Shown here: in pieces, positions 28,423-45,698 of the stretch
Position numbering within the stretch: the stretch's first letter is position 1
How the letters are laid out: the number at the start of each line of letters is the position of its first letter
Source of the DNA: an uncultured Bacilli bacterium
GTDB taxonomy: Bacteria; Bacillota_I; Bacilli_A; RF39; UBA660
NCBI GenBank assembly: GCA_947585665.1
Contig: CANPXE010000002.1
Coordinates: forward strand, 1,820-65,819
Reading direction: 5' to 3'
Length of the DNA: 64,000 nucleotides
Program-made: the position numbers and the translations under genes
Notes under the pieces: generated by a model
What the model was told of the DNA's origin: nothing
Database searches by the model: none
What the model saw: the letters and a program-made list of their open reading frames with translations, nothing else

Positions 28423-28782
28423 ACCTCCTTTTCATTATTTTTTTTAAATAAATAATAAATATAAAAAAGATATCATAATTTTAATGATATCTCAGCTATT
28501 TTAATTATAACATAATAATTAATTTTCATCATCTATTATTTTCTCTAGTTCAACACCAATCTTTTTAATTACCCTATAACTAAAGGATTTTCCATCATGA
28601 AATATTTTCTTTTATTAGACATAACTGTATTAATCAAATCATCTAGGAACCTATTTGTTATTTCACATTATACTGTTATAAAAAACCTTGGCTTTTTTGT
28701 TTTAAAATCCTCAATAGCATATGTTGTTCCACCAACTCTACTTTCGCTAGTAAGCATTGTTCTAGTTGGCGCATCTAAATTA

Positions 28783-29040: not shown

Positions 29041-29136
29041 ACCAACGGAATTTTCTTCTTAAATTTAGATTTCTACCTTTATTCATCTATGTTCATCGAA
29101 CTTCTTCATAAAAAGAGTTCGAGTATATTACTTAAT

Positions 29137-29417
29137 GGCAGAGATAAGTGAATTGAACTCCCAACAATGATTTTGGAGATGTAGTCCCGAATTTCTTAAA
29201 TTGAATTGAAATGGCTTGAAATCAAGTAATTTCAAGGGTTTCCGAATTTCATCAGTTCATCAAAACTGGCACTTTTTTTTGAAATATTTTGAACTAATTG
29301 GCACAAACTTTTTTGACCCATTTTTTTGTGCCAATCGAGTTGTAGACCGCTAGAGTCACTCTTCGCAAAACCAGTGTTCATAAGGGTTTAATTAAGTTAA
29401 CATAATAATTTGTGCCA
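29137..29417. repeat. Structured intergenic repeat R, copy 1 (about 280 bp, 85-90% identical to copy 2)
   Basis: Aligns with 37630..37924; contains the cttgaaatcaag...atttcaag hairpin and the TTGGCACAAA ... TTTGTGCCAA decamers. Confidence 0.8.
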
Positions 29418-29430
29418 CTTAATTAATCCC

Positions 29431-29490
29431 TTTTTCATCCATATAATCTAATTGATTTCTTATATATCAATTCAAATTTATCACTTTTCA
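29431..29490 (-). pseudogene. Truncated 5' fragment (17 codons, MKSDKFELIYKKSIRLY) of the 152-aa gene found intact at 38153..38611
   Basis: Near-identical DNA to 38545..38602, including the start codon; it is joined directly to repeat R copy 1. Confidence 0.55.
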
Positions 29491-29514
29491 TAACCAACTC
29501 CTAAACTTCTTATT

Positions 29515-31314
29515 TTAATTATCAGTAATACACTCTAAAATATCTTTTTTTAAATACTTCATAATAGGTATAGTAACTAATCCATAAAAATATACAATTG
29601 ATATAAAAATAATTATTCCCCAATTAATTAAGGAAATATAAAAATTCCAATCAATAGATAATTTAATAATTAAACATAATATATTAAAAATTATACAAGC
29701 AAAGATAAAGGCTAATAATATTTCCGTCAAATAATCAATTAAAAAGATTAAATGAATACGATCATTTGATACACGATATAGTCTTAAATAACCAATTTGC
29801 CTTTTATTATAATATAATTCTAAAAGTATTTTACTAATCATAAAGACAAACATAAATAATATAAATACTAAACCAATCTCTAAATATATTTTCACATAAT
29901 TATAAATAGTATATTCTTTATTAGCTATAGTATTAAAATGATTTAAAAGAACAGAATTAAAAAATTTTACATAACCATCTTTGCTTTTCAAGTATATATC
30001 AATAATGTCATTCTTAGATATACTGATTATAATTGTTTTATCTTTGACTGCTGTCTTGATTTCTTTAATTTTGTTATAGGAAATAAAAATCGCAGGTTTT
30101 ATTTCATTAGTTTCTACATCAACAATATCAGTATATATTTCATTGTTATCCAATGTATAAACATCAGTACCACAAATAATACCTGATATAGTTAAAATAT
30201 TATCATCTATTTCGATTGTCTTACCAATTGCTTCTTCATTTTCTAATTGCATTTTATTAATAACAAATTCTTCATTAACTAATATTTCATCATCACTTTT
30301 AGGGAAATGTCCATATTTTATTAAATCTTGTTTTTGAAAATAAGAATCTTCAGCATCAAATAATGTATATGCTTTATAATCATCTTTAACTATATTGTAG
30401 TTAAAATACTCTTTTTCTATTTTGTAATCAATGTATGGTAAATCATCTTCTCGAATGTTTAAAACTTGAATTGGATATTTTTTAGCATAGTCTTTAATGG
30501 ATTCTTTTTTTAAGTTTTGAATAATAGAAATTCCACTAAAAAGTAATAAGAAGAAAAGTGTCATAACAATCATCAAAACAATTCTTTTTTCTTTGCGCCT
30601 TCTTACAAAAAGAAAGTCATATTTCGAAAAAGACGATTGTTCTTCAGTATTATTATCATTATTGTTATCATTTTTTTCATTTATTTCTTCCTTAACTAAT
30701 TTTAATCTACCAAAATCAATCTCATAAATACAATTAGCTATTTCATCATAAATATTCTTATGTGTAGCAATAACAATAATTTTATCTAAATTAATAATTT
30801 CTTTTAAGTAATCACGAAATATTTCAGCATTTTCTTTATCGAGAGAAGAAGTCGGTTCATCTAAAATTATTAACTTACTATCAAGAAGAAGAGCTCTTAT
30901 TAAAGAAATGCGTTGTCTCTCACCACCTGATATCTCTTCCGGTTTTTTATCTAATAATTTTTCAACATCAAACTTTTTAGCATACTCTTTAATCTTATCA
31001 ATATCATCTTTAATAAATAGCAAGTTCTCTTTAATGGTTAATTTTTTAAATAAATAACTCTTTTGAAAAACATAAGAAATGTTATTTTTTATTGTTTGTA
31101 AATCATCTCTATTCATCTTTTTAACATCCTTATTATTCCAATAATACTTACCTTCATAATTAGTATCTAGAAAAGATAAAATATTGAATAAAGTTGTTTT
31201 ACCACTACCACTTATTCCTTTAATGACATAAATATTTCCCTCTTGTAATTTTAGATTAATTTTATCTAAAACGATGTGATCAAAACTTTTAGTTATATTT
31301 TTTAGTTCAATCAT
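29515..31314 (-). CDS. MacB-type ABC transporter, fused ATPase-FtsX-like permease
   Basis: N-terminal Walker A GISGSGKTTLFNIL, ISGGERQR signature and LIILDEPTSSLD; then TM1, large extracytoplasmic domain and 3 C-terminal TMs. Confidence 0.7.
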   Translation of the reverse strand: MIELKNITKSFDHIVLDKINLKLQEGNIYVIKGISGSGKTTLFNILSFLDTNYEGKYYWNNKDVKKMNRDDLQTIKNNISYVFQKSYLFKKLTIKENLLFIKDDIDKIKEYAKKFDVEKLLDKKPEEISGGERQRISLIRALLLDSKLIILDEPTSSLDKENAEIFRDYLKEIINLDKIIVIATHKNIYDEIANCIYEIDFGRLKLVKEEINEKNDNNNDNNTEEQSSFSKYDFLFVRRRKEKRIVLMIVMTLFFLLLFSGISIIQNLKKESIKDYAKKYPIQVLNIREDDLPYIDYKIEKEYFNYNIVKDDYKAYTLFDAEDSYFQKQDLIKYGHFPKSDDEILVNEEFVINKMQLENEEAIGKTIEIDDNILTISGIICGTDVYTLDNNEIYTDIVDVETNEIKPAIFISYNKIKEIKTAVKDKTIIISISKNDIIDIYLKSKDGYVKFFNSVLLNHFNTIANKEYTIYNYVKIYLEIGLVFILFMFVFMISKILLELYYNKRQIGYLRLYRVSNDRIHLIFLIDYLTEILLAFIFACIIFNILCLIIKLSIDWNFYISLINWGIIIFISIVYFYGLVTIPIMKYLKKDILECITDN

Positions 31315-33257
31315 AATAGATCACTCTTTTCTTTAATTAAGTAAAACCAACCTTTTTTCTTGCGCGAATGGTTGAGAAAAAGACTTTCGATTAAGGCAAA
31401 AACGCCACTAACTATTAATAATTTTAAAATCCAATCAATACTTATCATAAATAGTGGATATGGAAGAAAGCCACCACTAGTAATAGTGTAATTTAATACT
31501 TTTGATAAAAGAATAGAACAAAAAGAAGATAATAAAATTATGAAAAACATATAAAGTAGGAAATATATTGAAGTAGCTGTTTTAACACTCATTTCACGAT
31601 AACCATAATATTCATAAATACTATAATTGTGCTCTGTATGGGCAAGTCTTGTTTTATGAATTTGATAATAAAAGATAAGTCCTAAAGCTAAAAAAGCAAT
31701 ACTTGTGGAAAAACACAATTGTTGAATTAATTCATCATTAACTCCAAATTCAACAAAATTATTAATAGGATCATTTAAAACAATAGGCGAATTAGAATTA
31801 TAGTCTTTACCTTTGTATTTATTATAAAAACTCATGAAATCTTTACTATTATTAAAGTAAACTGTTAGAGAGGTTGCTGGATAATTAGAATTTAATTCAT
31901 CACTTCCTAAAACATCATCTTGTAAATATTTTTCCATGTAACTATTACTTAAAAAATAATACCAATCATAGACATATTGACCGAGAGTAGCCCTCCAAAG
32001 TGTCTCATTATCTTCATCAATCTTATTAAAGATACCAACTATTTCAAATTCATCTTTACCATCAGGAAGATTAAGTTCTATTTTTTCACCGATTAAGTTT
32101 TTTATTTTACTTTCATCTAAATTTTGTAATTCTAAAGCTTCTTCATAGCCAATAATAATATCATTTTTGTCCTCAAAATAATGCCCATAAAGTAGTTTAC
32201 TATCGATGTCACCTAAATTATCTTTATGTTCAGGAAGCGTAATTATATCGGTTACAAAATCCGTTTGAATACTTGAATCATCATCTTCTTCATAAGAATT
32301 CATTGGAACATTCCTAATATAGTTATAAGTGACTTCAGAAACATCATAATTAGATAAAATACTATTACAATAGTCTTTTGTCTCAAGAGAACAAAATATT
32401 CCAGTTGCTTTTAAATCATTATTATAAATTAGTTGATTAATAAGTTTGGTATCATAGTCAGTACATGCAAAAAGAAGTAATAAAACAACGGAAAAAATAG
32501 TTGTAAAAAGAAATAATATTTTCTTTTCAAAACGAAACATTTGACGACATAAATATTTTAAAACGATAAAAGTTTCTTTAAAAAAACTATTTTTTCTTTT
32601 ATATTTAATTTTTTTAGATAAATCTACTTTTAAATCTTTATCTTTATATCGATCTAAATCATTGAAATCTATTTTTTTACATTCCAAAGAAAAGATAGTA
32701 CTATCATGACTAGCACAAATTACTAATGCTTTTTCTTTTAATTCATCAAGCATTTCATAAAAAATATCACGATTTTTCTTATCTAATGAAGCTGTTGGTT
32801 CATCTAGTAGAAATATCTTTTTATCTTTTAAAATATTACCAATTAAAGCAAATCTCTGTCTTTCTCCACCCGATAATTGATTAGGGAACTTTTTCAAACA
32901 GCGACTTAAATTAAACTTTTTAACTAAGTTATTAATTTCATCTTTATTTTTATTTGATTGTAATATTAAGTTTTCTTCTATGGTTAAATAATCAATAAAA
33001 TATGTATCTTGGGAAATATAAGCAATTTTATCTTGAATGTTATTGTAATTAACACATTTTTTATAAACATTACCATCATAAGCTATTTCTCCATCATCAA
33101 AGCTAACAATTCCTAAAAGGATTTGAAGAAGAGTTGTTTTTCCACTACCACTAATACCATAAAGAACATATAGACCTTTATCTTCAAATTTATAAGAGAA
33201 ATCTTTAAAAATAGTAACATCATTAAATTTCTTTTTGATATTTTTACATATAATCAT
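31311..33257 (-). CDS. MacB-type ABC transporter, fused ATPase-FtsX-like permease (paralog)
   Basis: GISGSGKTTLLQIL, LSGGERQR, FLLDEPTASLD, plus the same four-TM FtsX-like topology; overlaps the downstream gene by 4 nt. Confidence 0.7.
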   Translation of the reverse strand: MIICKNIKKKFNDVTIFKDFSYKFEDKGLYVLYGISGSGKTTLLQILLGIVSFDDGEIAYDGNVYKKCVNYNNIQDKIAYISQDTYFIDYLTIEENLILQSNKNKDEINNLVKKFNLSRCLKKFPNQLSGGERQRFALIGNILKDKKIFLLDEPTASLDKKNRDIFYEMLDELKEKALVICASHDSTIFSLECKKIDFNDLDRYKDKDLKVDLSKKIKYKRKNSFFKETFIVLKYLCRQMFRFEKKILFLFTTIFSVVLLLLFACTDYDTKLINQLIYNNDLKATGIFCSLETKDYCNSILSNYDVSEVTYNYIRNVPMNSYEEDDDSSIQTDFVTDIITLPEHKDNLGDIDSKLLYGHYFEDKNDIIIGYEEALELQNLDESKIKNLIGEKIELNLPDGKDEFEIVGIFNKIDEDNETLWRATLGQYVYDWYYFLSNSYMEKYLQDDVLGSDELNSNYPATSLTVYFNNSKDFMSFYNKYKGKDYNSNSPIVLNDPINNFVEFGVNDELIQQLCFSTSIAFLALGLIFYYQIHKTRLAHTEHNYSIYEYYGYREMSVKTATSIYFLLYMFFIILLSSFCSILLSKVLNYTITSGGFLPYPLFMISIDWILKLLIVSGVFALIESLFLNHSRKKKGWFYLIKEKSDLL

Positions 33258-33259
33258 AA

Positions 33260-34201
33260 TTATTTATCCCTATTTTCTTCAATTTTTTCAAATATTTGAA
33301 ATAACTCTTTATAGTCTGAATTGTCTTTTAAACTATCAAACTTTTTATCTAAAGAGAATTTTCCATTCTTTTTAATATCTTTTTCCATTTCTTTAATCGT
33401 GTTATAAATTTCTTTTTCTTTATCAGTTGCTTTGTTAGAAGCAATCTTATCTGTTAAATATGTACCATTTGAATATACATAATCAATTCTAACTTCTTCT
33501 ATATTGCCATAATTTAAAAGTAATCCAACTTGATAGTGATCTTCATTACTCTTAACTTTTGTTATTGAGCAAGTTTTAAGTGATATATATTTTCCAATTA
33601 TATCATCTGTTTTTTGATATTTTTTTGAATATGCATCATTCCATAATTTTACAATATCATCTTTTTCAAAATTAACAAATTTAATACTTTTTAAATCATC
33701 ATTATTTATTTTTCTCTCCCAATGTTCATTTACTAACAATTCATTTATTTCACCTAATTCATCAGTTTCTGTTTTTTTGCCATCTTTTGATTTACGTGAA
33801 TGTTCAAGCGTAACTGAACTTGATGGTATTTTAGATATGTGTCCATCTCCATCTATAAGTGTACTATAATTATCATCTAAGTGTTCGTATTTAATATTAC
33901 AACCTGAAAAATAATTATAATAAATATATTTTTCTTTTTCTTGAACACGATCAATAGTAATATAATAGAACCAACCATCTTCTTTTTCTAAATAGCTTCT
34001 TTTAACAACAGAACTTTCGGCAACTTTCTCTTCTTCTTCTCTAATTTTTTTCTCTCTTTGTTCTTTATCATAAACTGTCTTGATTTTATTTATGGAAAAT
34101 ATAATAATTGCGACTAAAAATATAATTATAAATACAAACATAATTTTTTGATTTAAACTCTTTTTTTTCGACATATTTTTTCTCCTCTTTTTATATAGCA
34201 A
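33260..34201 (-). CDS. Membrane-anchored extracytoplasmic protein (possible accessory component of the MacB-like exporter)
   Basis: 313 aa with an N-terminal basic tail, a single TM helix and a charged extracellular domain; ends 3 nt upstream of the ABC gene. Confidence 0.3.
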   Translation of the reverse strand: MLYKKRRKNMSKKKSLNQKIMFVFIIIFLVAIIIFSINKIKTVYDKEQREKKIREEEEKVAESSVVKRSYLEKEDGWFYYITIDRVQEKEKYIYYNYFSGCNIKYEHLDDNYSTLIDGDGHISKIPSSSVTLEHSRKSKDGKKTETDELGEINELLVNEHWERKINNDDLKSIKFVNFEKDDIVKLWNDAYSKKYQKTDDIIGKYISLKTCSITKVKSNEDHYQVGLLLNYGNIEEVRIDYVYSNGTYLTDKIASNKATDKEKEIYNTIKEMEKDIKKNGKFSLDKKFDSLKDNSDYKELFQIFEKIEENRDK

Positions 34202-34227
34202 CTTACTAAAAAGTTATACTATAAGAA

Positions 34228-34268
34228 TAAACAATAGCCATTTTGGTTGAAATGGCTATTGTTTTATA
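34228..34268. terminator. Hairpin terminator between convergently oriented units
   Basis: aacaatagccattt-ggttg-aaatggctattgtt perfect 14-bp stem. Confidence 0.45.
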
Positions 34269-34772
34269 TTAATCTACTCTTATTTCGTAATCGAACACTG
34301 CACCATTTGTTGTTGTTTTATCACCTGTTATTTTGTCAAGTGCTGCTGTTATATAAAGTTCACCAGTTGCGTCATTAGCAGAATCAATATTTCCTAAACC
34401 AGCTGTATATTCTTCATCCAATTTGATAGTATCTAAATCCAATCCTTTAAATGTTCCTATGTATCTTTTTACGAAATCATCAGCATTAGGATCTGCATCA
34501 TCTTCCATCAAATATATAATTATCTCTCTACCAGTTATTGGTTTTGCAACTCCTTCTCTCAAGTATCCTAAATTATCAAAAAATACATATGATTCAGATC
34601 CCTTTAAAGGTGCTGACTTAGATGTTAAATTGAATATTTTACCTGATGTTTTTTTACCTGCTATTGCTTCCGGACCTTTTTGCCATCCAGTAACTTGATT
34701 ATAAGCATATACATTAGATGTAACTAATAATAACATTGCAAAAATTCCTAAGCAAATTACAATTTTTTTCAT
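34269..34772 (-). CDS. Small secreted protein (signal peptide, 167 aa)
   Basis: N-terminal signal peptide ending VYAYNQ; acidic mature region; strong AGGAGG-type RBS. Confidence 0.4.
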   Translation of the reverse strand: MKKIVICLGIFAMLLLVTSNVYAYNQVTGWQKGPEAIAGKKTSGKIFNLTSKSAPLKGSESYVFFDNLGYLREGVAKPITGREIIIYLMEDDADPNADDFVKRYIGTFKGLDLDTIKLDEEYTAGLGNIDSANDATGELYITAALDKITGDKTTTNGAVFDYEIRVD

Positions 34773-35026
34773 TTTTTCCTCCTTATTATTATATTTATTT
34801 TAACAACATTTTTATAGTGGCCACAATTTAAACTAAAATGGAGTTAACATATTTTGATGAAATACAAATTGTTATTTATGATAGTTTCCTATTTACAATA
34901 ATCATTTAATTAAATACATCTAAAATAGCACAATAATATCAAACTTACTATTTATAAGAAAACTAACATTAACAATTTATTTTTCACTTTATATTCTTTA
35001 ATGGTATTTAATTGTAGTTTAAATTT

Positions 35027-35779
35027 TTAAAGTGTAATATCAACACCTTCCATTTCGTCATACACTCCAGTAGCTGCACCATAAAACTTGAATACATTTC
35101 CATACCCAGCACTATCTATTACGAATAGTTGACTATTTGACAGACTTATTTGTTTTTTTGCATGTTGATATGATGCATATACCTTCCCACCTTTAGCAAG
35201 TGTATATTTTTGTTCAATAGTAACATTACTACCAGACGGCAACTTTACAGATGTTCCAAAACCATTTACAAATCCTTTGGCATCGTAAACAAAATCATAT
35301 CCTTCGCTAGAAGAAAATTTTGTAACTATTGAATCACTAATTAAATTTGTTCCAGAAAAACGTGCACCAATTATGTCATAGCTTCTTACATTTGGCAATG
35401 ATGTCCATGTACATTTTACAATGATTGCACAATTTTTGGAGCAACTCTTAACTATTGTTAATGTTTTTCCATTTTGATTGAGTGAAGAAGTCATTGGTGA
35501 TATTCCATAATCATAAATAGTCTTAATTTCAACATCGCTATTATCAATATTCAAATCTTGAATCCAATTAAGATCATCAATAGTCATTTTTTCAAAATAG
35601 TTATTACCATAAAATTCATTAATGAAATTATATGTTTTTGTTGAAACCTTAACTCCATTTTCATTAGTATAATAATCTTTACTTTGTGCATGAACTCCAT
35701 CGGTATAAATAAATATTAAAAATGTAATCATTATAATTAATGCATGACCATATTTTCTTCTCATATTTCCTTCTTTCAA
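35027..35779 (-). CDS. Secreted three-Cys protein of about 250 aa, cassette unit A
   Basis: Signal peptide (GVHAQS cleavage); conserved KSCSKNCAIIVKCTW block shared with paralog 42961..43722 at about 50% identity. Confidence 0.45.
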   Translation of the reverse strand: MKEGNMRRKYGHALIIMITFLIFIYTDGVHAQSKDYYTNENGVKVSTKTYNFINEFYGNNYFEKMTIDDLNWIQDLNIDNSDVEIKTIYDYGISPMTSSLNQNGKTLTIVKSCSKNCAIIVKCTWTSLPNVRSYDIIGARFSGTNLISDSIVTKFSSSEGYDFVYDAKGFVNGFGTSVKLPSGSNVTIEQKYTLAKGGKVYASYQHAKKQISLSNSQLFVIDSAGYGNVFKFYGAATGVYDEMEGVDITL

Positions 35780-35895
35780 ACCAATGTTAATTTAAAAATT
35801 TAAAAAAATAAAGGACTTATTCAGTCCATATGTTATTGAAACCTATTTTTTTTAAATTAAATATACATTATATAATAATATTTGATAAATACATA

Positions 35896-37005
35896 TTAAC
35901 TATCAAAATCTATTTTACTCAAATAATTATCACTAAACTCTTTTATTTTTTTATCATCACATTTATACATGATACATTCCTTCTTTTGAAGATCATAATA
36001 AAATTCTTCAATTATATCACCTGCTTGATTTATACTACTATATGACAAATCTACTGGATGTGTATAACTATATCTTTTTATGATGCCATCTTCTTGTTCT
36101 TCTACAATATAAGTTTTAACATCTGGATAATATTCCTGTTTTATACTTTTATTATCATTATTAGTTTCCAAATAATAACAATTATCGTCATCATTATATT
36201 TAAAATTTTTCATAATATAATTAGGCACATTAACATCTTCTACATAATTGACATCTTCTTTTAGTTTATTATGTTTCTTGAAAAAAATATTATTATTAGA
36301 ATATTCTTTTGATAGTTTTAATTTTATAATTGATACTTCATCATCTAATTCAATTTTTAAATATAAATTAGATACTAAATACTTTAAATCCTTATATTCC
36401 ACGCTCGATTCTGAAAAGTCCAATACATCAAAACTTATTACCCCGTTACCATAGAATAAAACATTTTTATTGTCGCCTTTTTCATAGTACAATTCAAAGT
36501 TAACATCATCAGTTTGTAAATTTTGAACATTTCCAAGTTGAATGTAAAGTTTTTCATGTGATACAATCATTAATCCATTATTTATAACATAATTATTTTG
36601 ACTACCTTCAATTTCATATACAGTTATAGAATTATAATTATTTATAAAATAATATGATAAAAATAAAATTGTTAAAGAAATAATTATTAACAAACTAAAA
36701 ATTAAATATTTTTTAAATTTAATACTTTTTTTCATAATATTTGCCGTCATGCTATTAATAGTTTTTATGTTGCTTTTATTTTTTCTTTCACCAAGCATTA
36801 ATTCATAAATTGTTATTTCAAAAATATCACTTAATTTTAATAAAACTTCTATACTAGGATTATTTATTCCACGTTCCCACTTTGAAACTGTTTCTCTTTC
36901 AACAAACAAAAGTTTTGACAACTGCTCCTGTGTCAAGTTTTTTTCTCGCCTTAATTCAGATATAAAATGCCCAATTTTTTTATAATCTAATTGCAAAATA
37001 ATCAC
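35896..37005 (-). CDS. Membrane-anchored XRE-family transcriptional regulator (HTH-TM-extracellular sensor domain), unit A
   Basis: N-terminal HTH_XRE (KNLTQEQLSKLLFVERETVSKWERGINNPSIEVLLKLSDIF), a single TM (YLIFSLLIIISLTILFLSYYFI), and about 250 aa outside. Confidence 0.65.
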   Translation of the reverse strand: MIILQLDYKKIGHFISELRREKNLTQEQLSKLLFVERETVSKWERGINNPSIEVLLKLSDIFEITIYELMLGERKNKSNIKTINSMTANIMKKSIKFKKYLIFSLLIIISLTILFLSYYFINNYNSITVYEIEGSQNNYVINNGLMIVSHEKLYIQLGNVQNLQTDDVNFELYYEKGDNKNVLFYGNGVISFDVLDFSESSVEYKDLKYLVSNLYLKIELDDEVSIIKLKLSKEYSNNNIFFKKHNKLKEDVNYVEDVNVPNYIMKNFKYNDDDNCYYLETNNDNKSIKQEYYPDVKTYIVEEQEDGIIKRYSYTHPVDLSYSSINQAGDIIEEFYYDLQKKECIMYKCDDKKIKEFSDNYLSKIDFDS

Positions 37006-37065
37006 CTACCAACTATATTATTATATATTATATACTATATACCAACATCTATCAATGTCATAATT

Positions 37066-37335
37066 TTATAGATTTCTATCCACAAAAAATTCTCTAATGT
37101 CTACTTCTAAAACGCGGAAAATTCTATACAAAACTGCTATACTAAATGACTGAGCTACTTTTCTTGATTCAATATTACCAATAAGACTAGTACTTAAATC
37201 ACATAGTTCAGCCAACTTTTCTTGAGTCATCTTTCCATAATAACTATATTTGCTATTATTATGTAATCTAAAATATTTAATATTTCTACTAGCAATATCG
37301 TAAATATATCTATCATCATTTGGATCAAAATTCAT
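37066..37335 (-). CDS. Small XRE-family HTH regulator, unit A
   Basis: 89 aa; HTH region MTQEKLAELCDLSTSLIGNIESRKV. Nearly identical to 44963..45250. Confidence 0.7.
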   Translation of the reverse strand: MNFDPNDDRYIYDIASRNIKYFRLHNNSKYSYYGKMTQEKLAELCDLSTSLIGNIESRKVAQSFSIAVLYRIFRVLEVDIREFFVDRNL

Positions 37336-37559
37336 TCAATATCACCTATTTGTATTTTCTCACTTATTGAAGAAAATATTTATATTCATATAATGATAAA
37401 ACTTATATCATAAGTGATGAAACAAAATCAATAGTTTTTATTAATAACGTTTACTAAATTTTTATAGTTATTATTTTCATATTCTTTCATATAGCAAATG
37501 CATAATACATGAGTGTTATTATACTAACTCTAAAAAGGCTTATTGTAAATTATTTTGAA

Positions 37560-37590
37560 AACAAAAAAATCTAGTAAGAACTACTAGATA
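37560..37590 (-). terminator. Hairpin plus T-run (minus strand) between repeat R copy 2 and the xreS-A promoter region
   Basis: atctagta-agaa-ctactagat palindrome followed on the minus strand by TTTTTTTGTTTT. Confidence 0.4.
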
Positions 37591-37629
37591 ATATATGATA
37601 AATCGCTACAAAAAGCGAACATTTGTTTT

Positions 37630-37924
37630 GGCAGGGGATAAGTGAATTGAACACTTATCTAAGGTTTTGGAGATGTAGTCTCGAATTTTTTGAATTGAAC
37701 TGAAATGGCTTGAAATCAAGTAATTTCAAGAGTTTCCGAATTTCATCAGTTCATCAAAAATGGCACTTTTTTTGAAATATTTTGAACTAATTGGCACAAA
37801 ATTGGCACAAATTTTTTTGACCCAATTTTTTTGTGCCAATCGAGTTGTAAACCGCTAGACTTTTTCTTCGCAAAACCAGTGTTCATAAGGGTTTAATTAG
37901 GGCAACATAATAATTTGTGCCAAT
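37630..37924. repeat. Structured intergenic repeat R, copy 2 (most complete copy)
   Basis: About 295 bp with 8-bp hairpin gataagtg/cacttatc, hairpin cttgaaatcaag/atttcaag, two direct ATTGGCACAAA repeats and two inverted TTTGTGCCAAT copies. Confidence 0.8.
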
Positions 37925-37934
37925 AAATAAATAA

Positions 37935-37975
37935 AAAAAGAGAGAATCTACTCATTTGTAGATCCTCTCAAATAT
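37935..37975 (-). terminator. Rho-independent terminator after the 152-aa gene operon
   Basis: gagaggatctac...gtagattctctc stem followed on the minus strand by TTTTTTTATTT. Confidence 0.45.
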
Positions 37976-38152
37976 CTATTCTTTCAACTTTTTTAATATC
38001 ATCAGGTGGATTAATTTCAGGTTTATCACATTTTTAAGACTATTTTAGATATTTTTGTTTATATTTCATAGATGTACCTATAGTACCTTTTTCATTTGTT
38101 TTTTATATATTACTTTTTGAAACTTTGTCAGTTCATTATTTAAGGAATAGAT

Positions 38153-38611
38153 TCAACAACTTTTAGCTAGTATCAAATTAATATCATTCGAATCAATAAT
38201 ATTTTGTATGCGACAATATTCATTATCTATTAAACTAATATTTTCATTACACTTTTCAAACACTCCAGTAATTTCAAATAGTTCATTATCTTTTATACGA
38301 GATACTGAAAGTCCACATTCATATAAAACCACTTCTTTTTGAGGCAATAAATTGTAATTATCATCAAGTTCAATTGGCATTAAATGGTTTACTTTAAATT
38401 GATAAATTATAAAAGTATATTCATCAATATTTATAGTTTTAGATTTAATTATTGAATCTTTTATATTATCAATGCTGACTTTATTACTTTTTTTGTATAA
38501 ACGACTGATATAATTATCAAACTTTAAATCGTATTTAAAATACAAACTATATAATCTAATTGATTTCTTATATATCAATTCAAATTTATCACTTTTCATA
38601 ACTAGCTCCAA
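38153..38611 (-). CDS. Hypothetical cytoplasmic protein (152 aa), terminal gene of cassette unit B
   Basis: ORF with RBS. Its 5' end is duplicated as a fragment at 29431..29490. Confidence 0.4.
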   Translation of the reverse strand: MELVMKSDKFELIYKKSIRLYSLYFKYDLKFDNYISRLYKKSNKVSIDNIKDSIIKSKTINIDEYTFIIYQFKVNHLMPIELDDNYNLLPQKEVVLYECGLSVSRIKDNELFEITGVFEKCNENISLIDNEYCRIQNIIDSNDINLILAKSC

Positions 38612-38629
38612 ATACTCTTTTTATTTAAA

Positions 38630-39352
38630 CTATACATTTTCATTAATTTTTTGTATCAATTCTTCTTTTAATTTTATGTATTTATTTTGTTGCTTCTCAC
38701 ATATCATATCCTTATTATTACAATCACTATATATATAATCATATTTCATTATTTCTTTCATTGTAAGACTACCATTTTCGTATCCAAAAAGCAAATTAGA
38801 TTGTCTAGAAATATTAAAATGCCCATATTCTACACTAGAGAATACAAATGTATTCTTAACGCTAGGATTTGGAGCTTTTTTTACAAATACTACATACTTA
38901 TCACCTAGAGTAAGAGGAGTCATTCCTCCAGAATAATCTATATATTCATTAGATATTAAATTTACTAAATCATAGATTTTTATATCATTACCCTCATAAA
39001 TACTATGATTACTATCATTTTTGTATATTTTTAATACTTTTGCATTATTAATCAAACTATTTCCATATATTAAAGGTTTATTCTGAACTATTATTTTAAA
39101 TACATAATCTGACTTGTCAAACAAATCATCAATATTACTTATTAATGAATCATTAATAAAAAAACCTTTTAATCTAGAATAATGTCTATACATCGACTCA
39201 GTAGATGTAATAAAGTAATCAGTATTTGAAATATAATCATCGTAACTTATGTGATTAGTTACTTTTTTACCAATGAAAATCATAATAAAGAAAAAAAATA
39301 CAAAAATTAAACAAGAAAATCTTAATATTTTTAATATGTCAACTTTTTTCAT
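38630..39352 (-). CDS. Membrane-anchored extracytoplasmic protein (240 aa)
   Basis: N-terminal TM helix then a soluble domain; overlaps the ABC ATPase stop by 14 nt. Confidence 0.35.
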   Translation of the reverse strand: MKKVDILKILRFSCLIFVFFFFIMIFIGKKVTNHISYDDYISNTDYFITSTESMYRHYSRLKGFFINDSLISNIDDLFDKSDYVFKIIVQNKPLIYGNSLINNAKVLKIYKNDSNHSIYEGNDIKIYDLVNLISNEYIDYSGGMTPLTLGDKYVVFVKKAPNPSVKNTFVFSSVEYGHFNISRQSNLLFGYENGSLTMKEIMKYDYIYSDCNNKDMICEKQQNKYIKLKEELIQKINENV

Positions 39353-39992
39353 TTCGATTTAACACCTTACCATCAACAACATAAAAAATCTTATCACACA
39401 AATAATTTAAATCCTCTTTATTATGGCTTGCCAATAACACTATTTTTTTCTGTTTTTTAAGTTTCAAAATTATTTCATGTAACTTTTTTATTGATGTTTC
39501 ATCTAAACCATTTGTTGGTTCATCTAAAATAATAATTTGTTGATTTTCCATTATTGCTTGTATAATTCTTAACTTTTGTTTCATTCCAAGGGAATATTCT
39601 TTAAATTTTTTATCCTTTGCTTCTAATAAGTCAAACTCTTGTAATAAACTACAAATGTATTGCTCATTATCTTTATTGTTAATTTTATATAACATATCTA
39701 GATTTTGAAATCCTGTTAGATGAGGATAAAAATCAGGATTTTCGATAAGGATTCCAAAATTTCTTAAATCATATTCATCATTAATTATCGAAGTGTCATC
39801 TATTAAAACATCACCAGTTGTTGGATATATCAAACTTGATATTGCTCTAAAAAGCATTGTCTTACCTGATCCATTTCTTCCATAGAATCCATATATTTTC
39901 CCACTTGATAAACTTAAATTAACATTATCTAAAATTACTTTATTTTTAATAATTTTTGTGTAATTTTTAACTACTATTCTCATCTTTAACAC
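39339..39992 (-). CDS. ABC transporter ATP-binding protein
   Basis: Walker A GRNGSGKTMLFRAI, signature SLGMKQKLRI and Walker B IIILDEPTNGLDE. Confidence 0.8.
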   Translation of the reverse strand: MLKMRIVVKNYTKIIKNKVILDNVNLSLSSGKIYGFYGRNGSGKTMLFRAISSLIYPTTGDVLIDDTSIINDEYDLRNFGILIENPDFYPHLTGFQNLDMLYKINNKDNEQYICSLLQEFDLLEAKDKKFKEYSLGMKQKLRIIQAIMENQQIIILDEPTNGLDETSIKKLHEIILKLKKQKKIVLLASHNKEDLNYLCDKIFYVVDGKVLNRNEKS

Positions 39993-40638
39993 CTCCTAAA
40001 TCTATTTTTATGTATAAAGATTTTAATATAAAAATTAATATGATTATAATAAAAAAGTCCACATAATTAATATTATAATTTACATATAATGAAACAAAAG
40101 GAATATAAAAGCATTTGAATGAATTTAATAATACTAAAACAGTGCAAGTCACAATAATAATAGAATATATAAAATTGTCAATAACTAATGCTCCTATAAC
40201 AATTATCATAATCAATAAAAATGTTTCAATGATATACTTAAAGTAAAATATCAAAAAGATTGTTTTTGTTTCTATTGGAAGTTGAAAAATTATTGTAAAT
40301 AAAATAATTTGCACTAAAATTGTAAATGTCCCTAATATAATATGATTTTTAATATTATCCTTAATTATGCTAAAATAATACGTTTTACGATTTTTATATC
40401 TAGGATTCATCTTTATTAGCTTATAATACATATTTTTAGATATTAAAAATATATTTAATATTACAGGAATAAACCAAATAAAGTTATAAATGTTGTTCTT
40501 AGAAAAGTCAATTATAATTTTATAATATGATACATTCATCCAAGATCGCATTTCTAACAAAAATGGAATTTTCATATAACATGTAACTAATATTATTGTC
40601 AAATATATAAATTTTTTCCCATTACTCATTATTATCAT
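39967..40638 (-). CDS. Polytopic membrane protein (putative ABC-2-type permease subunit)
   Basis: 223 aa with about 6 predicted TM helices; sits in an operon with the ABC ATPase. Confidence 0.4.
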   Translation of the reverse strand: MIIMSNGKKFIYLTIILVTCYMKIPFLLEMRSWMNVSYYKIIIDFSKNNIYNFIWFIPVILNIFLISKNMYYKLIKMNPRYKNRKTYYFSIIKDNIKNHIILGTFTILVQIILFTIIFQLPIETKTIFLIFYFKYIIETFLLIMIIVIGALVIDNFIYSIIIVTCTVLVLLNSFKCFYIPFVSLYVNYNINYVDFFIIIILIFILKSLYIKIDLGGVKDENSS

Positions 40639-41305
40639 CTTTTTTCATCATAAGATCTTTTTTAGAATATAGCAAAAGCATTACATTTACCAAAATAATA
40701 TTTAAGATAGTAATGCAAGTAAATATGGTAATACTGTTCGAATAAGTATAATTAATAATATACATATTATTAAAGCTTATATTTAGATTGTTTAAGTAAA
40801 AAAAATTTATATGATCTAAAGGAAAATCTATGCAAATTACAATAAATAGAAAAAATATAATAGAAATAAATCTTTTATCAATAAATATGTCAATTATCAT
40901 AATTATTAATGAAATAGTCAAGCTAACAATTAAGTAGTTTACAATTATAATTAGTATATTTAATAAATATTTAAATGAAACAGGTGCATTTAAAATAACT
41001 ATTACTAAATTAAATACTAAAAAAAATACAGTATTTAAAATAAATTCATAAATTAATGTAGTAATAATTAACTTAATTCTATTTTTATATCTAGGATATT
41101 TAGTTGTAATAAAAATATATTTATATACTAAATAATTAAAAATCAATGAAACAACAATCAAGTAATATCTGAGAGGTGGATTGCTTAAATATCCTAAAAA
41201 ATTTTCAAAAAAATTATTTTTTAAATAATATGAAATAAAAATTGAAACAATACAATTTAATATAAATATTAAAGTTAATTGTTTATTTCTCACTATATAT
41301 TTCAT
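40622..41305 (-). CDS. Polytopic membrane protein (putative ABC-2-type permease subunit)
   Basis: 227 aa, multi-TM; overlaps neighbouring genes at both ends. Confidence 0.4.
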   Translation of the reverse strand: MKYIVRNKQLTLIFILNCIVSIFISYYLKNNFFENFLGYLSNPPLRYYLIVVSLIFNYLVYKYIFITTKYPRYKNRIKLIITTLIYEFILNTVFFLVFNLVIVILNAPVSFKYLLNILIIIVNYLIVSLTISLIIMIIDIFIDKRFISIIFFLFIVICIDFPLDHINFFYLNNLNISFNNMYIINYTYSNSITIFTCITILNIILVNVMLLLYSKKDLMMKKDDNNE

Positions 41306-42114
41306 AAATAATCCTTCTTCCTAATTTGAAGAAGTAATAAGACTATGCAAGATAAAAGTAGGGTTACATATAATAATATTGCATTATATATAGAAAAGGA
41401 TGAAAAAGGTTGTAATTGTCCAATAATAGAATATTTATCTAATTTAAAAATTGATAATATTAATTCATCACCAATCAAAGCTAAAAATGGGAATACATAT
41501 ATAATGATACGTTGTTTTATAAAAAAAGAAATAGCATAAGATAGTGAAGATAGAAGACTAATCAAAAAAGATGTATGAGCAGATATAGACACAATGAACC
41601 AAAAAGGACTAATTAGTCTTAAATTATCAATAAAATAATATTTGTTACTACTTAAGTAAAAACCAGGGCTTTGGAAATATGTTAAAGCATTGCCACTACC
41701 ATATATTTTAGCAAGAACATAATAGTTTAACATAAATCCACAAAAAACAATTACAAATGTGGTGATAAGAATTAAAAAAAATCTCACAAATATTAAAGTT
41801 TTCTTATTTAATCTTGAATAAAGGATATTAGTAATTTTTTTATTATTTTCAAGCCAATTTATATCCGAGAAAATCGTTGAACATAATATTGGTAAAGCTA
41901 TAATAATAACTAGATTAATATTTACATCTAAATTATATAGAATAAATAGATATTCCGCTTTATAACCAATTTCACAAAACAAGTGTAAATTATAATTATT
42001 ATGATAAATAACTAAAAATATATGAACTAGATTAATTAATAATATACCCATTATAGCAAAATATAATTCCTTTTTTCTATATAGATGTTTCAAACTATAT
42101 ATTAATTCCTTCAT
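41302..42114 (-). CDS. Polytopic membrane protein (putative permease subunit)
   Basis: 270 aa, multi-TM. Confidence 0.4.
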   Translation of the reverse strand: MKELIYSLKHLYRKKELYFAIMGILLINLVHIFLVIYHNNYNLHLFCEIGYKAEYLFILYNLDVNINLVIIIALPILCSTIFSDINWLENNKKITNILYSRLNKKTLIFVRFFLILITTFVIVFCGFMLNYYVLAKIYGSGNALTYFQSPGFYLSSNKYYFIDNLRLISPFWFIVSISAHTSFLISLLSSLSYAISFFIKQRIIIYVFPFLALIGDELILSIFKLDKYSIIGQLQPFSSFSIYNAILLYVTLLLSCIVLLLLQIRKKDYL

Positions 42115-42140
42115 ACGAATTCTCCTCTTCTTAATTCAAT

Positions 42141-42168
42141 GTAAACACCAACACTTGTTGGTGTTTAC
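42141..42168. terminator. Strong 12-13-bp hairpin between the secreted-protein gene and the permease genes
   Basis: gtaaacaccaac-actt-gttggtgtttac; lacks a clear T-run, so it may be an attenuator or stabiliser. Confidence 0.3.
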
Positions 42169-42179
42169 ATATTAAATGA

Positions 42180-42623
42180 TTAATTATAGTTAATGTATCC
42201 ATTAGATACACCTTTTTTTGTCAATTTCCATACATGATTTCTAGCTTTAGTTCTCATTTTAGTTCCTATAGAAAATGCTCTTTCATAATTTAAATATCCA
42301 GTATCATCATTTTCCAAGTTCATAATTGTTCCATTTGGTGAATAAACATATTCTTTTTCTTTAGAATCAGTATCTTTATAAACATATCCACCAGCATAGT
42401 ATGTAACTTCGTCAATATTTTGAGCATCAACTATAATTTCACCTTTATTTGTTTTCGTTGCTATAACACCATCACCACGATCAGCTGTTGTTGTAACCCA
42501 ACCTTGGCGTGCAGGTATATCAAAGTAAAACCAAAGCCAATCAGCTGCATGTACACTAACCATTGTTAGTATAGCTACTAATGAAATAGAAACAAAAACA
42601 ATCTTTTTCATATGCTTCTTCAT
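42180..42623 (-). CDS. Small secreted protein (signal peptide, 147 aa), unit B
   Basis: Signal peptide ending VHAADW; GGAGG RBS. Confidence 0.4.
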   Translation of the reverse strand: MKKHMKKIVFVSISLVAILTMVSVHAADWLWFYFDIPARQGWVTTTADRGDGVIATKTNKGEIIVDAQNIDEVTYYAGGYVYKDTDSKEKEYVYSPNGTIMNLENDDTGYLNYERAFSIGTKMRTKARNHVWKLTKKGVSNGYINYN

Positions 42624-42658
42624 ATTATCACCTCCTTTCTTAACATTCTTTGATTTAA

Positions 42659-42689
42659 TCGTTCATAAATCAAAGCAATTTATGAACGA
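42659..42689. promoter_or_regulatory. Perfect 12-bp inverted repeat TCGTTCATAAAT-N7-ATTTATGAACGA, candidate operator
   Basis: Located 36-66 nt upstream of the 42623 start codon, in the promoter region of the small secreted-protein gene. Confidence 0.4.
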
Positions 42690-42843
42690 TTTCATATAGT
42701 AAATATACCTACAATAAAAATTTATCAGTAGATTGATTATCAATAATACATTTTTATTAACATTCTATTTTCTTAAAAACAATTCAAAATTTATTGTTAA
42801 TCGTCCTTTTCCTTTCAACTTCATCATAATACTAAATATTTAA

Positions 42844-42903
42844 AAAAATAAAGAGATGAATCATCACATAAAGGTTATATTCAAAATGTGATTTCTCATC
42901 TCA
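42844..42903 (-). repeat. 59-bp terminator-like repeat, copy 1 (downstream of the secreted 253-aa gene)
   Basis: Identical to 43741..43799; on the minus strand it forms agagatgagaaatcacat...atgtgatgattcatctct plus a T-run. Confidence 0.6.
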
Positions 42904-42960
42904 TCATTATTTTTATTTTATGACAATAGTTAATTATATTTTTTATTAACATAAATAAAC

Positions 42961-43722
42961 TTATAATGTCATATTTAAACCATCCATTTGATCAAATACA
43001 TTTAAAGCTGCACCATAAAATTTAAATACACTACCATAACCAGTTGCAGTTATCGTATACATTTTACTAGTTTCCAAAGTAATACTACTTTTTGAATGTT
43101 GATATGTAGCAAATACTTTTCCTCCTTTTGATAATACATACTTTTGTTCAACTGAAATATTTGTTCCTGATGAATTTAATTTTACTGATACACCAAAACC
43201 ATTGCTTGCTTGTTTTAAGTTAGTAAAATATTCAGTTCCTGCGCTGGATGTAACTTTTGTAGTTATAGTATTACTTGCTAAACTAGTATCTAAAAAACGA
43301 GCTCCAATAACATCATAACTCTTTACACTTGGATTTGATATCCATTTGCAATTTACAATAATCGTGCAGTTTGTAGAACAACTTTTAGCTATTGTAATTT
43401 TCCTATTATATTGAGTAATTTCAGTAGCTAATGGCATAATATTCGAATTATTATATGATTTGATTTCTACTTCGCTATTATCAATGTTCAAATCTTTAAT
43501 CCAATTATATTCTTCTAATGACATTGTTTCAAAATAATCTTTTCCGTAAAAATCGCTTATAAACTGATATTCCTTCTTTGAAACTACTATACCATTGCTA
43601 TTTACAAAACAATCAATAGTTTGTGCCGACACAAATTGAATAGAAATACAAATAATGCAAACAATAAATAGAAAAATCTTTTGCTTTAATTTTTTCATAT
43701 TTTTTCCTCCTTCCAATTCCAT
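42961..43722 (-). CDS. Secreted three-Cys protein of about 253 aa, cassette unit B
   Basis: Signal peptide (VSAQT); KSCSTNCTIIVNCKW block; paralog of 35027..35779. Confidence 0.45.
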   Translation of the reverse strand: MELEGGKNMKKLKQKIFLFIVCIICISIQFVSAQTIDCFVNSNGIVVSKKEYQFISDFYGKDYFETMSLEEYNWIKDLNIDNSEVEIKSYNNSNIMPLATEITQYNRKITIAKSCSTNCTIIVNCKWISNPSVKSYDVIGARFLDTSLASNTITTKVTSSAGTEYFTNLKQASNGFGVSVKLNSSGTNISVEQKYVLSKGGKVFATYQHSKSSITLETSKMYTITATGYGSVFKFYGAALNVFDQMDGLNMTL

Positions 43723-43740
43723 CGTAATATTTTTAAGTCA

Positions 43741-43799
43741 AAAAATAAAGAGATGAATCATCACATAAAGGTTATATTCAAAATGTGATTTCTCATCTC
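43741..43799 (-). repeat. 59-bp terminator-like repeat, copy 2 (between the XRE-TM gene and the secreted 253-aa gene)
   Basis: Identical to 42844..42903. Confidence 0.6.
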
Positions 43800-43809
43800 T
43801 TGTTTATTT

Positions 43810-44919
43810 TTAAGTAAGCATACTTAAATATTCATTTTTAAAATATTCTATCAAATCTTTATTACATTCACCAGTAATGCATTCATTACTATCCAACACA
43901 TAAACAAATTCTTTTATAATCTTTCCATTATCACTAGTTTCTGAGTAAGTTATATCTGGCTTAGAATATGTAAAACTACTTCTATACCCATCAAATACTT
44001 CCTCTACCATGTACACATTAGCATCTACAAAATAGGTATACTTAATTGTTTTATCTTCTCTTTTTTCTTCTAAATAATAAGAATTATCATTGCTGTTAAA
44101 ATCAAAATTATCTTTTATATATGTAGGAATGTTATCATATAAATCATTAATGTCATCTTGTTTCAAAGATGATTCATTTTGTGGAATTATTCTATTATTA
44201 GAATATGATTTAGATAGTTCCAATTTTAAAACTGACATTTCATTATCATTAAATATAATTTCTAAAAACATATTTGAAATTAAATATTTTAAATCACCAT
44301 ACTTAAATTCTGAATCTTTATAATCAGAAACATATGATCCTCCCAAGTCATTTCTCTCATAAAAAGTAATTGTTTTATTACCTTTTGTGTAATATAACTT
44401 TTCAGATATAATATTAACGCCATTATTATTTTCAATATTTCCCAAATTTATATAAACTTTTTCTCTAGATATAACCATTATTCCATTGTGAATAGAAAAA
44501 TTATTGTCATCATAATTAATATCATAAACCATAATTGAATTAAAATTATTTATGAAATAATATGATAAAAAAGATAAAAATAAAATTAAGATTATAATTA
44601 TAGTTATGGATAGATACTTTTTAAAAACTACATTTTTTCGTAGTGCACCAACTGTAACATCACTAATACTTTCAATATTCTCTTTATTTATTCGTTCGCC
44701 TAATATCATTTCATTAATAGTAATTCCAAATATTTTAGACATTTTTATTAATGTTTCAGTGTTTATACTATTTTCACCAAGTTCCCATTTTGATATAGTG
44801 GTTCTATCAACAAATAATTTTTTTGCTAGATCTTCTTGGGTCATATTTTTTTCTTTTCTTAGTTCTACTATAAATTTTCCTATTTTTTTATAGTCCATAT
44901 AATCCATTTTAAACATCAC
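43810..44919 (-). CDS. Membrane-anchored XRE-family transcriptional regulator (HTH-TM-extracellular domain), unit B
   Basis: HTH_XRE (KNMTQEDLAKKLFVDRTTISKWELGENSINTETLIKMSKIF), single TM, about 250-aa ectodomain; about 55% identical to 35896..37005. Confidence 0.65.
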   Translation of the reverse strand: MMFKMDYMDYKKIGKFIVELRKEKNMTQEDLAKKLFVDRTTISKWELGENSINTETLIKMSKIFGITINEMILGERINKENIESISDVTVGALRKNVVFKKYLSITIIIILILFLSFLSYYFINNFNSIMVYDINYDDNNFSIHNGIMVISREKVYINLGNIENNNGVNIISEKLYYTKGNKTITFYERNDLGGSYVSDYKDSEFKYGDLKYLISNMFLEIIFNDNEMSVLKLELSKSYSNNRIIPQNESSLKQDDINDLYDNIPTYIKDNFDFNSNDNSYYLEEKREDKTIKYTYFVDANVYMVEEVFDGYRSSFTYSKPDITYSETSDNGKIIKEFVYVLDSNECITGECNKDLIEYFKNEYLSMLT

Positions 44920-44962
44920 CTACCAAAACTACATATATTTTAACATCAAACAATAACAATTA

Positions 44963-45250
44963 TCAACGATTACTATCATTGTTAAATTTTCTGTCTACAA
45001 AAAATTCTCTAATGTCAACTTCTAAAACACGAGAAATTCTATATAAAACTGCTATACTAAATGACTGAGCTACTTTTCTTGATTCAATATTACCAATAAG
45101 ACTAGTACTTAAATCACACAATTCAGCCAATTTTTCTTGAGTCATCTTTCCATAATAACTATATTTGCTATTATTATGTAATCTAAAATATTTAATATTT
45201 CTACTAACAATATCATAAATATATCTATCATCATTTGGATCAAAATTCAT
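44963..45250 (-). CDS. Small XRE-family HTH regulator, unit B
   Basis: 95 aa; identical to the unit A copy except for the C-terminal tail. Confidence 0.7.
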   Translation of the reverse strand: MNFDPNDDRYIYDIVSRNIKYFRLHNNSKYSYYGKMTQEKLAELCDLSTSLIGNIESRKVAQSFSIAVLYRISRVLEVDIREFFVDRKFNNDSNR

Positions 45251-45545
45251 TCAATATCACATATTTGTATTTTCTCACTTATTGAAGAAAATATTTATAT
45301 TCATATAATGATAAATCTTATATGATAAGTGATAAAAAAGAAGTCAGTATTTTTTATTACTAACATTTACTAAATTTTTATAGTTATTATTTTCATATTC
45401 TTTCATATAGCAAATGCATAATACATGAGTACTATTATACTAACTCTAAAAAGGGTTATTGTAAATTATTTTGAAAATAAAAAAATCTAGTAAAAACTAC
45501 TAGATGTATATGATAAATCGCTATAAAAAGCGAACATTTGTTTTG

Positions 45546-45586
45546 GCAGGGGATAAGTGAATCGAACACTTATCTAAGGTTTTGGA
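45546..45586. repeat. Repeat R, truncated copy 3 (first about 40 bp only)
   Basis: ggcaggggataagtgaatcgaacacttatctaaggttttggaga matches the start of copy 2, then homology ends. Confidence 0.7.
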
Positions 45587-45698
45587 GACCCCTATTTTAC
45601 CATTAAACTAATCCCCTATGCGTTTGATTATACCACAATAATTATGCAAATACAATAACACATTTTTATTTTTAACATAATCTATTATAGGTGATTAT

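Follow-up and report, generated by a model that had tools for sequence, protein, structure and literature searches.

We analysed a 64-kb window, the whole 64,000-nucleotide stretch shown above, from an uncultured Bacilli bacterium, a spore-former-like gut metagenome-assembled genome (MAG) of about 26% GC. It contains two gene islands, here called A and B, and an intergenic repeat, R, that a preliminary description had placed at their boundaries in two full copies and a truncated third. The window holds a single tRNA gene, tRNA-Trp(CCA), on the minus strand at 45544-45617 (ARAGORN; Rfam tRNA score, 64.4 bits). What had been taken for the truncated third copy of R is actually the 3' part of this genuine gene. 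Copies 1 and 2 each begin with a 44- to 45-nt duplicate of that part, from the anticodon loop to CCA. The features at the three junctions are listed below.

45544-45617, minus strand: intact tRNA-Trp(CCA) gene (ARAGORN, Rfam, alignment)
45544-45588, minus strand: identity block (core, O) at the putative attL, apparently supplied by island B
45251-45543, minus strand: P' arm of island B; it takes in the hairpin and T-run that lie downstream of the tRNA, as well as the small XRE gene's upstream region
37674-37932, minus strand: R arm of copy 2, the distal (P-type) arm closing island B
37629-37673, minus strand: tRNA-Trp 3' fragment, core of copy 2, island type; it would complete a P-O-P' (attP-like) junction between R and the P' arm of island A
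37336-37628, minus strand: P' arm of island A, with hairpins at 37603-37618 and 37563-37590
29180-29427, minus strand: R arm of copy 1, closing island A
29136-29179, minus strand: decayed, chimeric tRNA-Trp 3' fragment, core of the putative attR

In a minus-strand alignment, the block common to all three copies (TCTCCAAAA...CCTGCCA) spans the last base of the 5' anticodon-stem strand, the anticodon loop, the T-arm, the acceptor 3' strand, and CCA. On its 5' side lies the tRNA 5' half in copy 3 and R in copies 1 and 2. The R/core junction falls at the identical nucleotide in copies 1 and 2 (...GACTACA, then TCTCCAAAA), at the start of the anticodon loop. On the 3' side, copies 2 and 3 continue for about 600 bp at 93-98% identity, through hairpins and a small XRE gene, and copy 1 runs into unrelated DNA. 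The fragments at 37629-37673 (97.8% identical to the tRNA) and 29136-29179 (77.8%) are on the same strand as the tRNA gene. Copy 3 (45544-45588) and copy 2 are 97.8% identical over 45 nt, and the copy 2 core joined to the tRNA 5' half still folds as tRNA-Trp in an ARAGORN test. The copy 1 core is native-like as far as the T loop and island-like beyond it, and it no longer completes a tRNA (alignments, BLAST, and ARAGORN test). It is decayed and chimeric, and apparently older.

With their core blocks included, copy 1 spans 29136-29427 and copy 2 spans 37629-37932, both within 1-10 nt of where they were first placed. The two share 86.9% identity over 305 nt, with individual blocks at 91% and 87%. 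The island-specific arm is about 250 nt long and holds the 11-mers described below. In other metagenome assemblies, the copy 2 arm is 96.9-100% identical. The P' arms are also conserved, with 92.7% identity over 245 nt (45300-45543 versus 37385-37628). Several structural details of the preliminary description needed adjustment. One of its two hairpins in R (37637-37659) is the tRNA T-arm. Of the two minus-strand terminators said to bracket copy 2, a strong one is present just beyond R at 37969-37940, and the other side has weaker hairpins (37618-37603 and 37590-37563). The copy 1 open reading frame (ORF) is 49 aa (29232-29381, minus strand), not 53 codons. It is indeed not conserved, because its 46-aa counterpart in copy 2 undergoes a frame change near the end and has a different C terminus.

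The bodies of the two islands were annotated with Pfam, NCBIfam, and ORF translations, as follows.

37933-45250, minus strand: body of island B
44963-45250: small XRE gene of island B
43810-44919: helix-turn-helix transmembrane (HTH-TM) regulator of island B, 369 aa; the island also encodes secreted 253-aa and 147-aa proteins and an ATP-binding cassette (ABC) ATPase of 217 aa with separate multi-pass membrane permeases
38153-38599: 148-aa ORFan gene of island B
37940-37969, minus strand: strong intrinsic terminator of the 148-aa gene
29428-37335, minus strand: body of island A
37066-37335: small XRE gene of island A
35896-37005: HTH-TM regulator of island A; the island also encodes secreted 250-aa and 167-aa proteins and a 313-aa protein
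29515-33257: two fused ABC ATPase-permease proteins of island A, 599 and 648 aa

Both islands share their ends, namely R, sequence of the 148-aa gene, and the P' arm with the small XRE gene. The 148-aa gene beside R is an ORFan, and island A retains a remnant of its 5' end (29441-29514 versus 38549-38622, 91% identity). However, the HTH-TM regulators and the secreted proteins of about 250 aa have only about 65-76% DNA identity between A and B, the cargo is unrelated, and the transporters differ in architecture. Conserved ends with divergent interiors indicate independent insertions, so the cassette duplication that had been suggested gives way to two insertions with unrelated cargo. The NCBIfam families nearest to the island ABC ATPases (29515-33257 and 39339-39992) are lantibiotic-protection and lactococcin-972-type bacteriocin-export transporters, with scores below the family cut-offs, and each island encodes small secreted proteins (147, 167, and 250 aa). 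Therefore, the cargo is probably bacteriocin/immunity-like. In island B, a 73-nt direct repeat with a hairpin (42843-42915 and 43740-43812, 96% identical) flanks the gene for the secreted 253-aa protein, and one metagenome contig (L050) ends within this repeat.

We propose, with a probability of roughly 70%, that a family of integrative islands inserts into the tRNA-Trp gene and that R, as P-type arm plus core, forms their conserved distal end. On the minus strand, one would then read tRNA-Trp with a 3' half from island B, P' arm, island B, R, and a displaced fragment (copy 2). A second P' arm, island A, R, an older decayed fragment (copy 1), and the chromosome would follow. Writing O for the tRNA 3' block, P for R, and P' for the arm by the small XRE gene would give the locus as B-O-P' ... 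island B ... P-O-P' ... island A ... P-O-B'. Copy 3 would be attL, copy 2 a hybrid attP-like junction, and copy 1 attR. Such an array would result from two serial site-specific integrations into one tRNA gene. The islands would have lost their integration and transfer genes but kept attL and attR. They would move only with an integrase supplied in trans, for example, from a tRNA-Trp-specific integrative and conjugative element (ICE), and we infer that they might still be mobilizable. The preliminary description had named beforehand, as the outcome that would undo it, that R is the terminus of a mobile element, and this is essentially the outcome obtained. Its suggestion of a recombination hotspot was right insofar as R appears to be part of a recombination site. 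However, that site would be a site-specific attachment site, and the cassettes are not duplicates.

For comparison, we retrieved contigs with exactly the same flanking proteins. The site is polymorphic, with B plus A in the window and in four other contigs (L061-L064), B alone in L065, and a third island, C, with an ICE in L122 and L084. R lies at cassette junctions in other strains too, both where the B plus A array is reproduced (L061-L064) and in the strain with only island B (L065). In L065, R matches copy 2 at 96.9% identity, and after it come TCTCCAAAACCACTGTTGGGAGTTCGATTCTCTCATCCCCTGCCA and a different flank. Compared with the island-borne version, this 45-mer has changes in the variable region and T stem (GGGAG/CTCTC versus AAGTG/CACTT). 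When joined to the tRNA 5' half of the window, it makes a valid tRNA-Trp, and it is therefore taken to be the displaced native 3' half. The copy 2 core in the window would be of the island type because the tRNA that it was displaced from had already been rebuilt by island A, which fits serial integration. Furthermore, many contigs from independent metagenome assemblies, L049, L051-L053, and L055-L057 among them, end at 45572-45593, at or within a few nucleotides of the core boundary at 45588. Breaks at such a place are to be expected where a repeat can have different neighbours.

Between the attR fragment and conserved chromosome (a 146-aa gene) is a further stretch of about 3 kb that varies between strains (window 26065-29135; L065 4515-7873). 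In the window, it encodes a 582-aa protein that matches DUF4365 weakly, and it also has a 97-aa ORF; the L058 counterpart of this ORF is annotated DUF1810. In L065, the products are a protein of 309 aa and another of 608 aa, the latter with a match (E value, 9e-29) to PDC-S49, a candidate defence system in PADLOC. Perhaps this stretch is one more decayed island, or else a defence hotspot.

Related cassettes occur in other mobile contexts. L125 comes from another, related low-GC host without flank homology to the window, and it carries an ICE with VirD4, TrbL, PrgI, and VirB4. This ICE holds a homologous cargo cassette, in which the regulator has 55% identity. At the end of the ICE come, in order, a toxin-antitoxin pair, a 522-aa tyrosine integrase (PF14659/PF00589), a 272-bp arm, and a tRNA-Trp 3' fragment of the native type, whose junction falls on the same nucleotide as that of R (...tatag, then TCTCCAAAACC). 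The arm is R-sized and occupies the position of R, beside the integrase. In L122 and L084, island C has a complete tRNA-Trp at its start; its P' arm is the same, and its small XRE gene is nearly identical. Past a homologue of the 148-aa gene (92% identical), the island runs straight into ICE genes (methyltransferase, SpaA adhesin, sortase, TrbL_4, PrgI, and VirB4), and this ICE part is at least 24 kb long. In L080-L083 (about 10001-18150), the same regulator/secreted-protein/ABC module lies beside a gene for a 556-aa large serine recombinase. That unit splits a penicillin-binding-protein gene, leaving PBP_dimer/Transpeptidase upstream and Transpeptidase/PASTA downstream. Its insertion is reminiscent of gene-interrupting elements in spore-formers. 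Together, these contexts indicate that the cassette is mobile cargo and that the tRNA-Trp anticodon loop is an integration site used by tyrosine-integrase ICEs in this clade.

The R arm is marked by an 11-mer, ATTGGCACAAA. Counting either strand, it occurs exactly six times in the window, always within R, which also holds one copy with a single mismatch. When the 10-mer was searched for with up to 1 mismatch, there were 11 matches, compared with 4.6 ± 2.1 in shuffled sequences and more than in every shuffle, and 7 of the 11 were within R. The 11-mers are arranged as follows.

37790-37811, plus strand: two tandem direct 11-mers, ATTGGCACAAA, with an 11-bp period (copy 2)
37830-37840, minus strand: inverted 11-mer, forming an N18 palindrome with 37801-37811 (copy 2)
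37914-37924, minus strand: outer inverted 11-mer, 84 bp from the 37830-37840 unit (copy 2)
29297-29307, plus strand; 29325-29335, minus strand; 29409-29419, minus strand, 1 mismatch: 11-mers of copy 1

Copy 2 therefore has four exact 11-mers, 117-250 bp from the core, and copy 1 has two exact ones and one with a single mismatch. The palindrome reported earlier is present in both copies, with an N18 spacer in copy 2 and N17 in copy 1. However, the two adjacent direct repeats are found only in copy 2, since an 11-bp indel leaves copy 1 with a single unit. The order and spacing resemble those of a lambda-type attP. For this reason, the 11-mers are most likely accessory sites of a recombination complex, as arm-type integrase sites or excisionase sites, and R would be bound by an integrase or an excisionase.

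The copy 2 sequence at 37791-37806 has sigma-54 -24/-12 spacing (TGGCAC-N5-TGGC, with one mismatch in the -12 box). The pattern is missing in copy 1 and is probably coincidental. A sigma-54 promoter, whose TGGCAC-N5-TTGC spacing the tandem 11-mers mimic, was rejected because copy 1 holds only one unit. In a short Logan contig (L069, 1281-1450), island B homology ends 2 nt past the outer 11-mer and is followed by unrelated promoter-like sequence. Either recombination took place at the 11-mer or the contig is an assembly chimera. The same 11-mer pair also occurs in L089 (6826-6895) and about 15 other JGI/ENA contigs, which are unrelated and of higher GC. There it encodes a tandem peptide repeat, FVPIELAQI or FVPIQLAQI, within a 382-aa ORF, and it is a coincidence of sequence rather than a relative of R. 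Two short JGI contigs, L095 (80-488) and L104 (838-1156), have three copies of a palindrome of about 41 nt (ATTGGCACAAA...TTTGTGCCAAT), spaced by 184 nt in L095 and irregularly in L104 (185 and 93 nt). These palindromes are a repeat family unrelated to R.

The islands have no recombinase of their own. No Pfam recombinase domain (PF00589, integrase, resolvase, or transposase) was found in the island or window ORFs examined, which included nearly all of at least about 100 aa. A tblastn search of the window with the L125 integrase gave no match, and Pfam revealed no type IV secretion or conjugation genes in island A or B. Lacking a recombinase, the islands resemble decayed cis-mobilizable elements (CIMEs).

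Several results weigh against the proposal that R is an attachment-site arm of tRNA-Trp islands. No integrase gene adjoins R in any sequence that we examined. The arm of the L125 ICE has no 11-mers, and its local alignment with R has a z score of about 0 against 1,000 dinucleotide shuffles. Therefore, the L125 integrase is not the partner of R. A MAFFT alignment of the two was rejected as homology, being no better than dinucleotide shuffles. In L084, the sister cassette runs directly into ICE genes with no R between them in the 10 kb examined, and a link of R to the far end of an L084-type ICE is conjecture. All the 11-mers are on one arm, and none was found in the P' arms (37336-37628 and 45251-45543) with up to 2 mismatches, whereas a lambda-type attP has arm sites on both sides. 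With its core decayed, at least island A may be immobile, and R might be so well conserved because its copies share a recent origin or underwent gene conversion, not because of a function. The distribution of R also counts against the proposal. BLAST of R against phage and plasmid collections gave no match, and no relatives were detectable outside the lineage in phage, plasmid, GTDB-representative, IMG/VR, and JGI metagenome collections.

More targeted searches of these collections were also negative. Scans with the palindrome pattern matched 43 sequences in GTDB genomes and 4 in IMG/VR, none R-like beyond the pattern itself. In the JGI metagenomes, there were 33 matches, mostly to the FVPIELAQI coding repeat or to unrelated hairpins. 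An R/core junction 24-mer had 0 matches in the JGI metagenomes, and a conserved R 22-mer had 0 in IMG/VR, where a search with the TrbL-like protein of the ICE found no match either. An insertion sequence or miniature inverted-repeat transposable element was ruled out because R has no terminal inverted repeats, its copies are found only at tRNA-core junctions, and the phage and plasmid searches were negative. Homologues of the small XRE protein (70-85% identical), one of them labelled 'Bacilli bacterium', are encoded in ordinary chromosomal contexts without R and without a tRNA, and so they gave no help in tracing R. Elsewhere in the window, outside the islands (9877-14048), a gene for a 320-aa protein with an N-terminal XRE-type HTH domain fused to an ABC ATPase lies upstream of two large ABC-2 permease genes.

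Other explanations of R were weighed against the same evidence. R might be a functionless scar, the leftover end of decayed elements kept through recency, in an array reshaped solely by homologous recombination between repeats of about 300-600 bp. The island and window ORFs examined include no recombinase, R is confined to this lineage, and the decayed and chimeric core of copy 1 suggests homologous exchange or gene conversion between copies. However, four exact, ordered direct and inverted 11-mers were kept while the island interiors diverged to 65-76% or became unrelated. Furthermore, the same R end is joined to differing cargo and displaced fragments across strains. This reuse suggests repeated site-specific use in the recent past, and so we consider the scar unlikely. 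A role for the 11-mers as operators or iterons of the XRE-family regulators of the islands, for expression or maintenance, seems improbable. The HTH regulators are the most conserved island genes, and R would lie about 300-600 bp upstream of the small XRE gene either at the copy 2 junction or in an excised circle. Even so, upstream of the island B XRE genes is the tRNA rather than R, and no 11-mer was found over the 20 kb examined for island C, whose small XRE gene is nearly identical. Nor was TTGGCACAAA found near XRE homologues (eight loci, 72-85% identical), and there was none at the loci of XRE-TM regulator homologues. The half-sites are 29 bp apart, centre to centre, a spacing atypical of a Cro/CI-type dimer. 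Therefore, the array for the adjacent XRE regulators that had been offered earlier is disfavoured. An iteron-type replication origin was rejected because copy 2 has just two tandem units and copy 1 has one, and Pfam revealed no rep gene.

Two explanations that concern DNA transfer and transcription appear more doubtful still. R could be an origin of transfer (oriT) or of replication, so that a helper ICE might mobilize the integrase-less islands or the islands might replicate after excision. The inverted repeats, tandem repeats, and A/T tracts in R are compatible with this, and sister strains have ICE conjugation genes at the same locus. However, no relaxase or Rep gene is nearby, R has no similarity to any plasmid sequence, and its tandem units number only two (copy 2) or one (copy 1). 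R also abuts the core at every copy, a better fit to an att arm, and we regard an origin as very improbable. R could also be, or contain, an independently transcribed small RNA between minus-strand terminators, maybe a chimera ending in the tRNA 3' half, but this seems very unlikely indeed. R does lie between terminator-like hairpins and folds better than shuffled sequences (z score, -5.3), but the opposite strand folds almost equally well (z score, -4.5). This suggests DNA palindromes rather than a strand-specific RNA. Promoter signals were not above background (22, versus 16.2 ± 3.8 in shuffles), and the 11-bp indel between the copies deletes one repeat unit. There was no Rfam match to R, and in the window Rfam found only the tRNA and a chance match to mir-16 (25.9 bits, versus a threshold of 36.5). 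R variants are too few for covariation analysis. The small RNA of the preliminary description is therefore unsupported.

The attachment-site reading turns a mystery repeat into a precise boundary map of two mobile islands in an uncultured gut Firmicute. It also explains why assemblies of this species break at the tRNA, and contig breaks at a tRNA core boundary could serve as a practical marker of att-site repeats in MAGs. One regulator/secreted-protein/ABC module is associated with three different mobility backbones, namely tandem islands without an integrase, ICEs with a tyrosine integrase, and an element with a serine recombinase. Should trans mobilization of the islands still occur, they would be a further example of accessory modules, probably for bacteriocins or immunity, that spread without a recombinase of their own. 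A more speculative possibility, which we hold only tentatively and think unlikely, is that the R-core-P' junction is a reusable docking site. Integrase-less bacteriocin/ABC-immunity cassettes would be stacked, swapped, and excised there, at tRNA-Trp, by an ICE integrase acting in trans. If so, this would be a cassette-exchange system on a tRNA att site, and the ATTGGCACAAA 11-mers would be a new single-arm recognition code for an integrase or excisionase.

The type of structure is well known. Its new members here are the sequence of R, with the 11-mer code, and the bacteriocin-type cassettes that lack an integrase. In lambda attP, the arm-type Int sites are P1, P2, and P'1-P'3, and the Xis sites are X1, X1.5, and X2. 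The 11-mers in R resemble these sites in being motifs of about 10-11 bp that are distinct from the core, both direct and inverted, and 100-250 bp from the crossover. The tandem pair has the one-helical-turn spacing of P'1-P'3 or X1-X2. Unlike those of lambda, the sites in R are on a single arm, their sequences are unrelated, and the binding protein is presumed. The islands also resemble integron cassette arrays as recombinase-less units with conserved recombination ends and variable cargo that are stacked at one chromosomal site. However, they are 8-kb multigene islands with att-type sites that have a tRNA core, not a folded attC, and no integron integrase or attI is adjacent.

Targeting of tRNA genes is known only for tyrosine recombinases, an attP centred on the anticodon is a major class, and a regenerated tRNA gene and a displaced fragment mark the ends of such islands (PMC4383910). 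Islands A and B resemble the Islander class A islands, which have an anticodon-centred attP (PMC4383910). The likeness lies in the tandem array, in an identity block that extends from the anticodon loop as far as the 3' end, and in island ends marked by an intact tRNA on one side and a directly oriented 3' fragment on the other. They differ in that each Islander island is required to have an integrase gene and neither A nor B has one. The closest known systems are CIMEs together with ICEs and IMEs (integrative and mobilizable elements), as in the elements related to ICESt1/ICESt3 in Streptococcus thermophilus and the tRNA-Lys composite islands of Streptococcus agalactiae (PMC5704250). CIMEs have lost their integration and transfer genes, retain attL and attR, and are typically found in tandem after site-specific accretion (PMC5704250). 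Unlike in the S. thermophilus and S. agalactiae cases, the target here is tRNA-Trp in an uncultured low-GC gut Firmicute, and R and its 11-mers have no sequence relatives. Like CIMEs, islands A and B have putative att sites on either side and carry no genes for integration or transfer. They are in tandem at the 3' end of the target gene with a hybrid att site between them, and sister strains have ICE genes at the same site.

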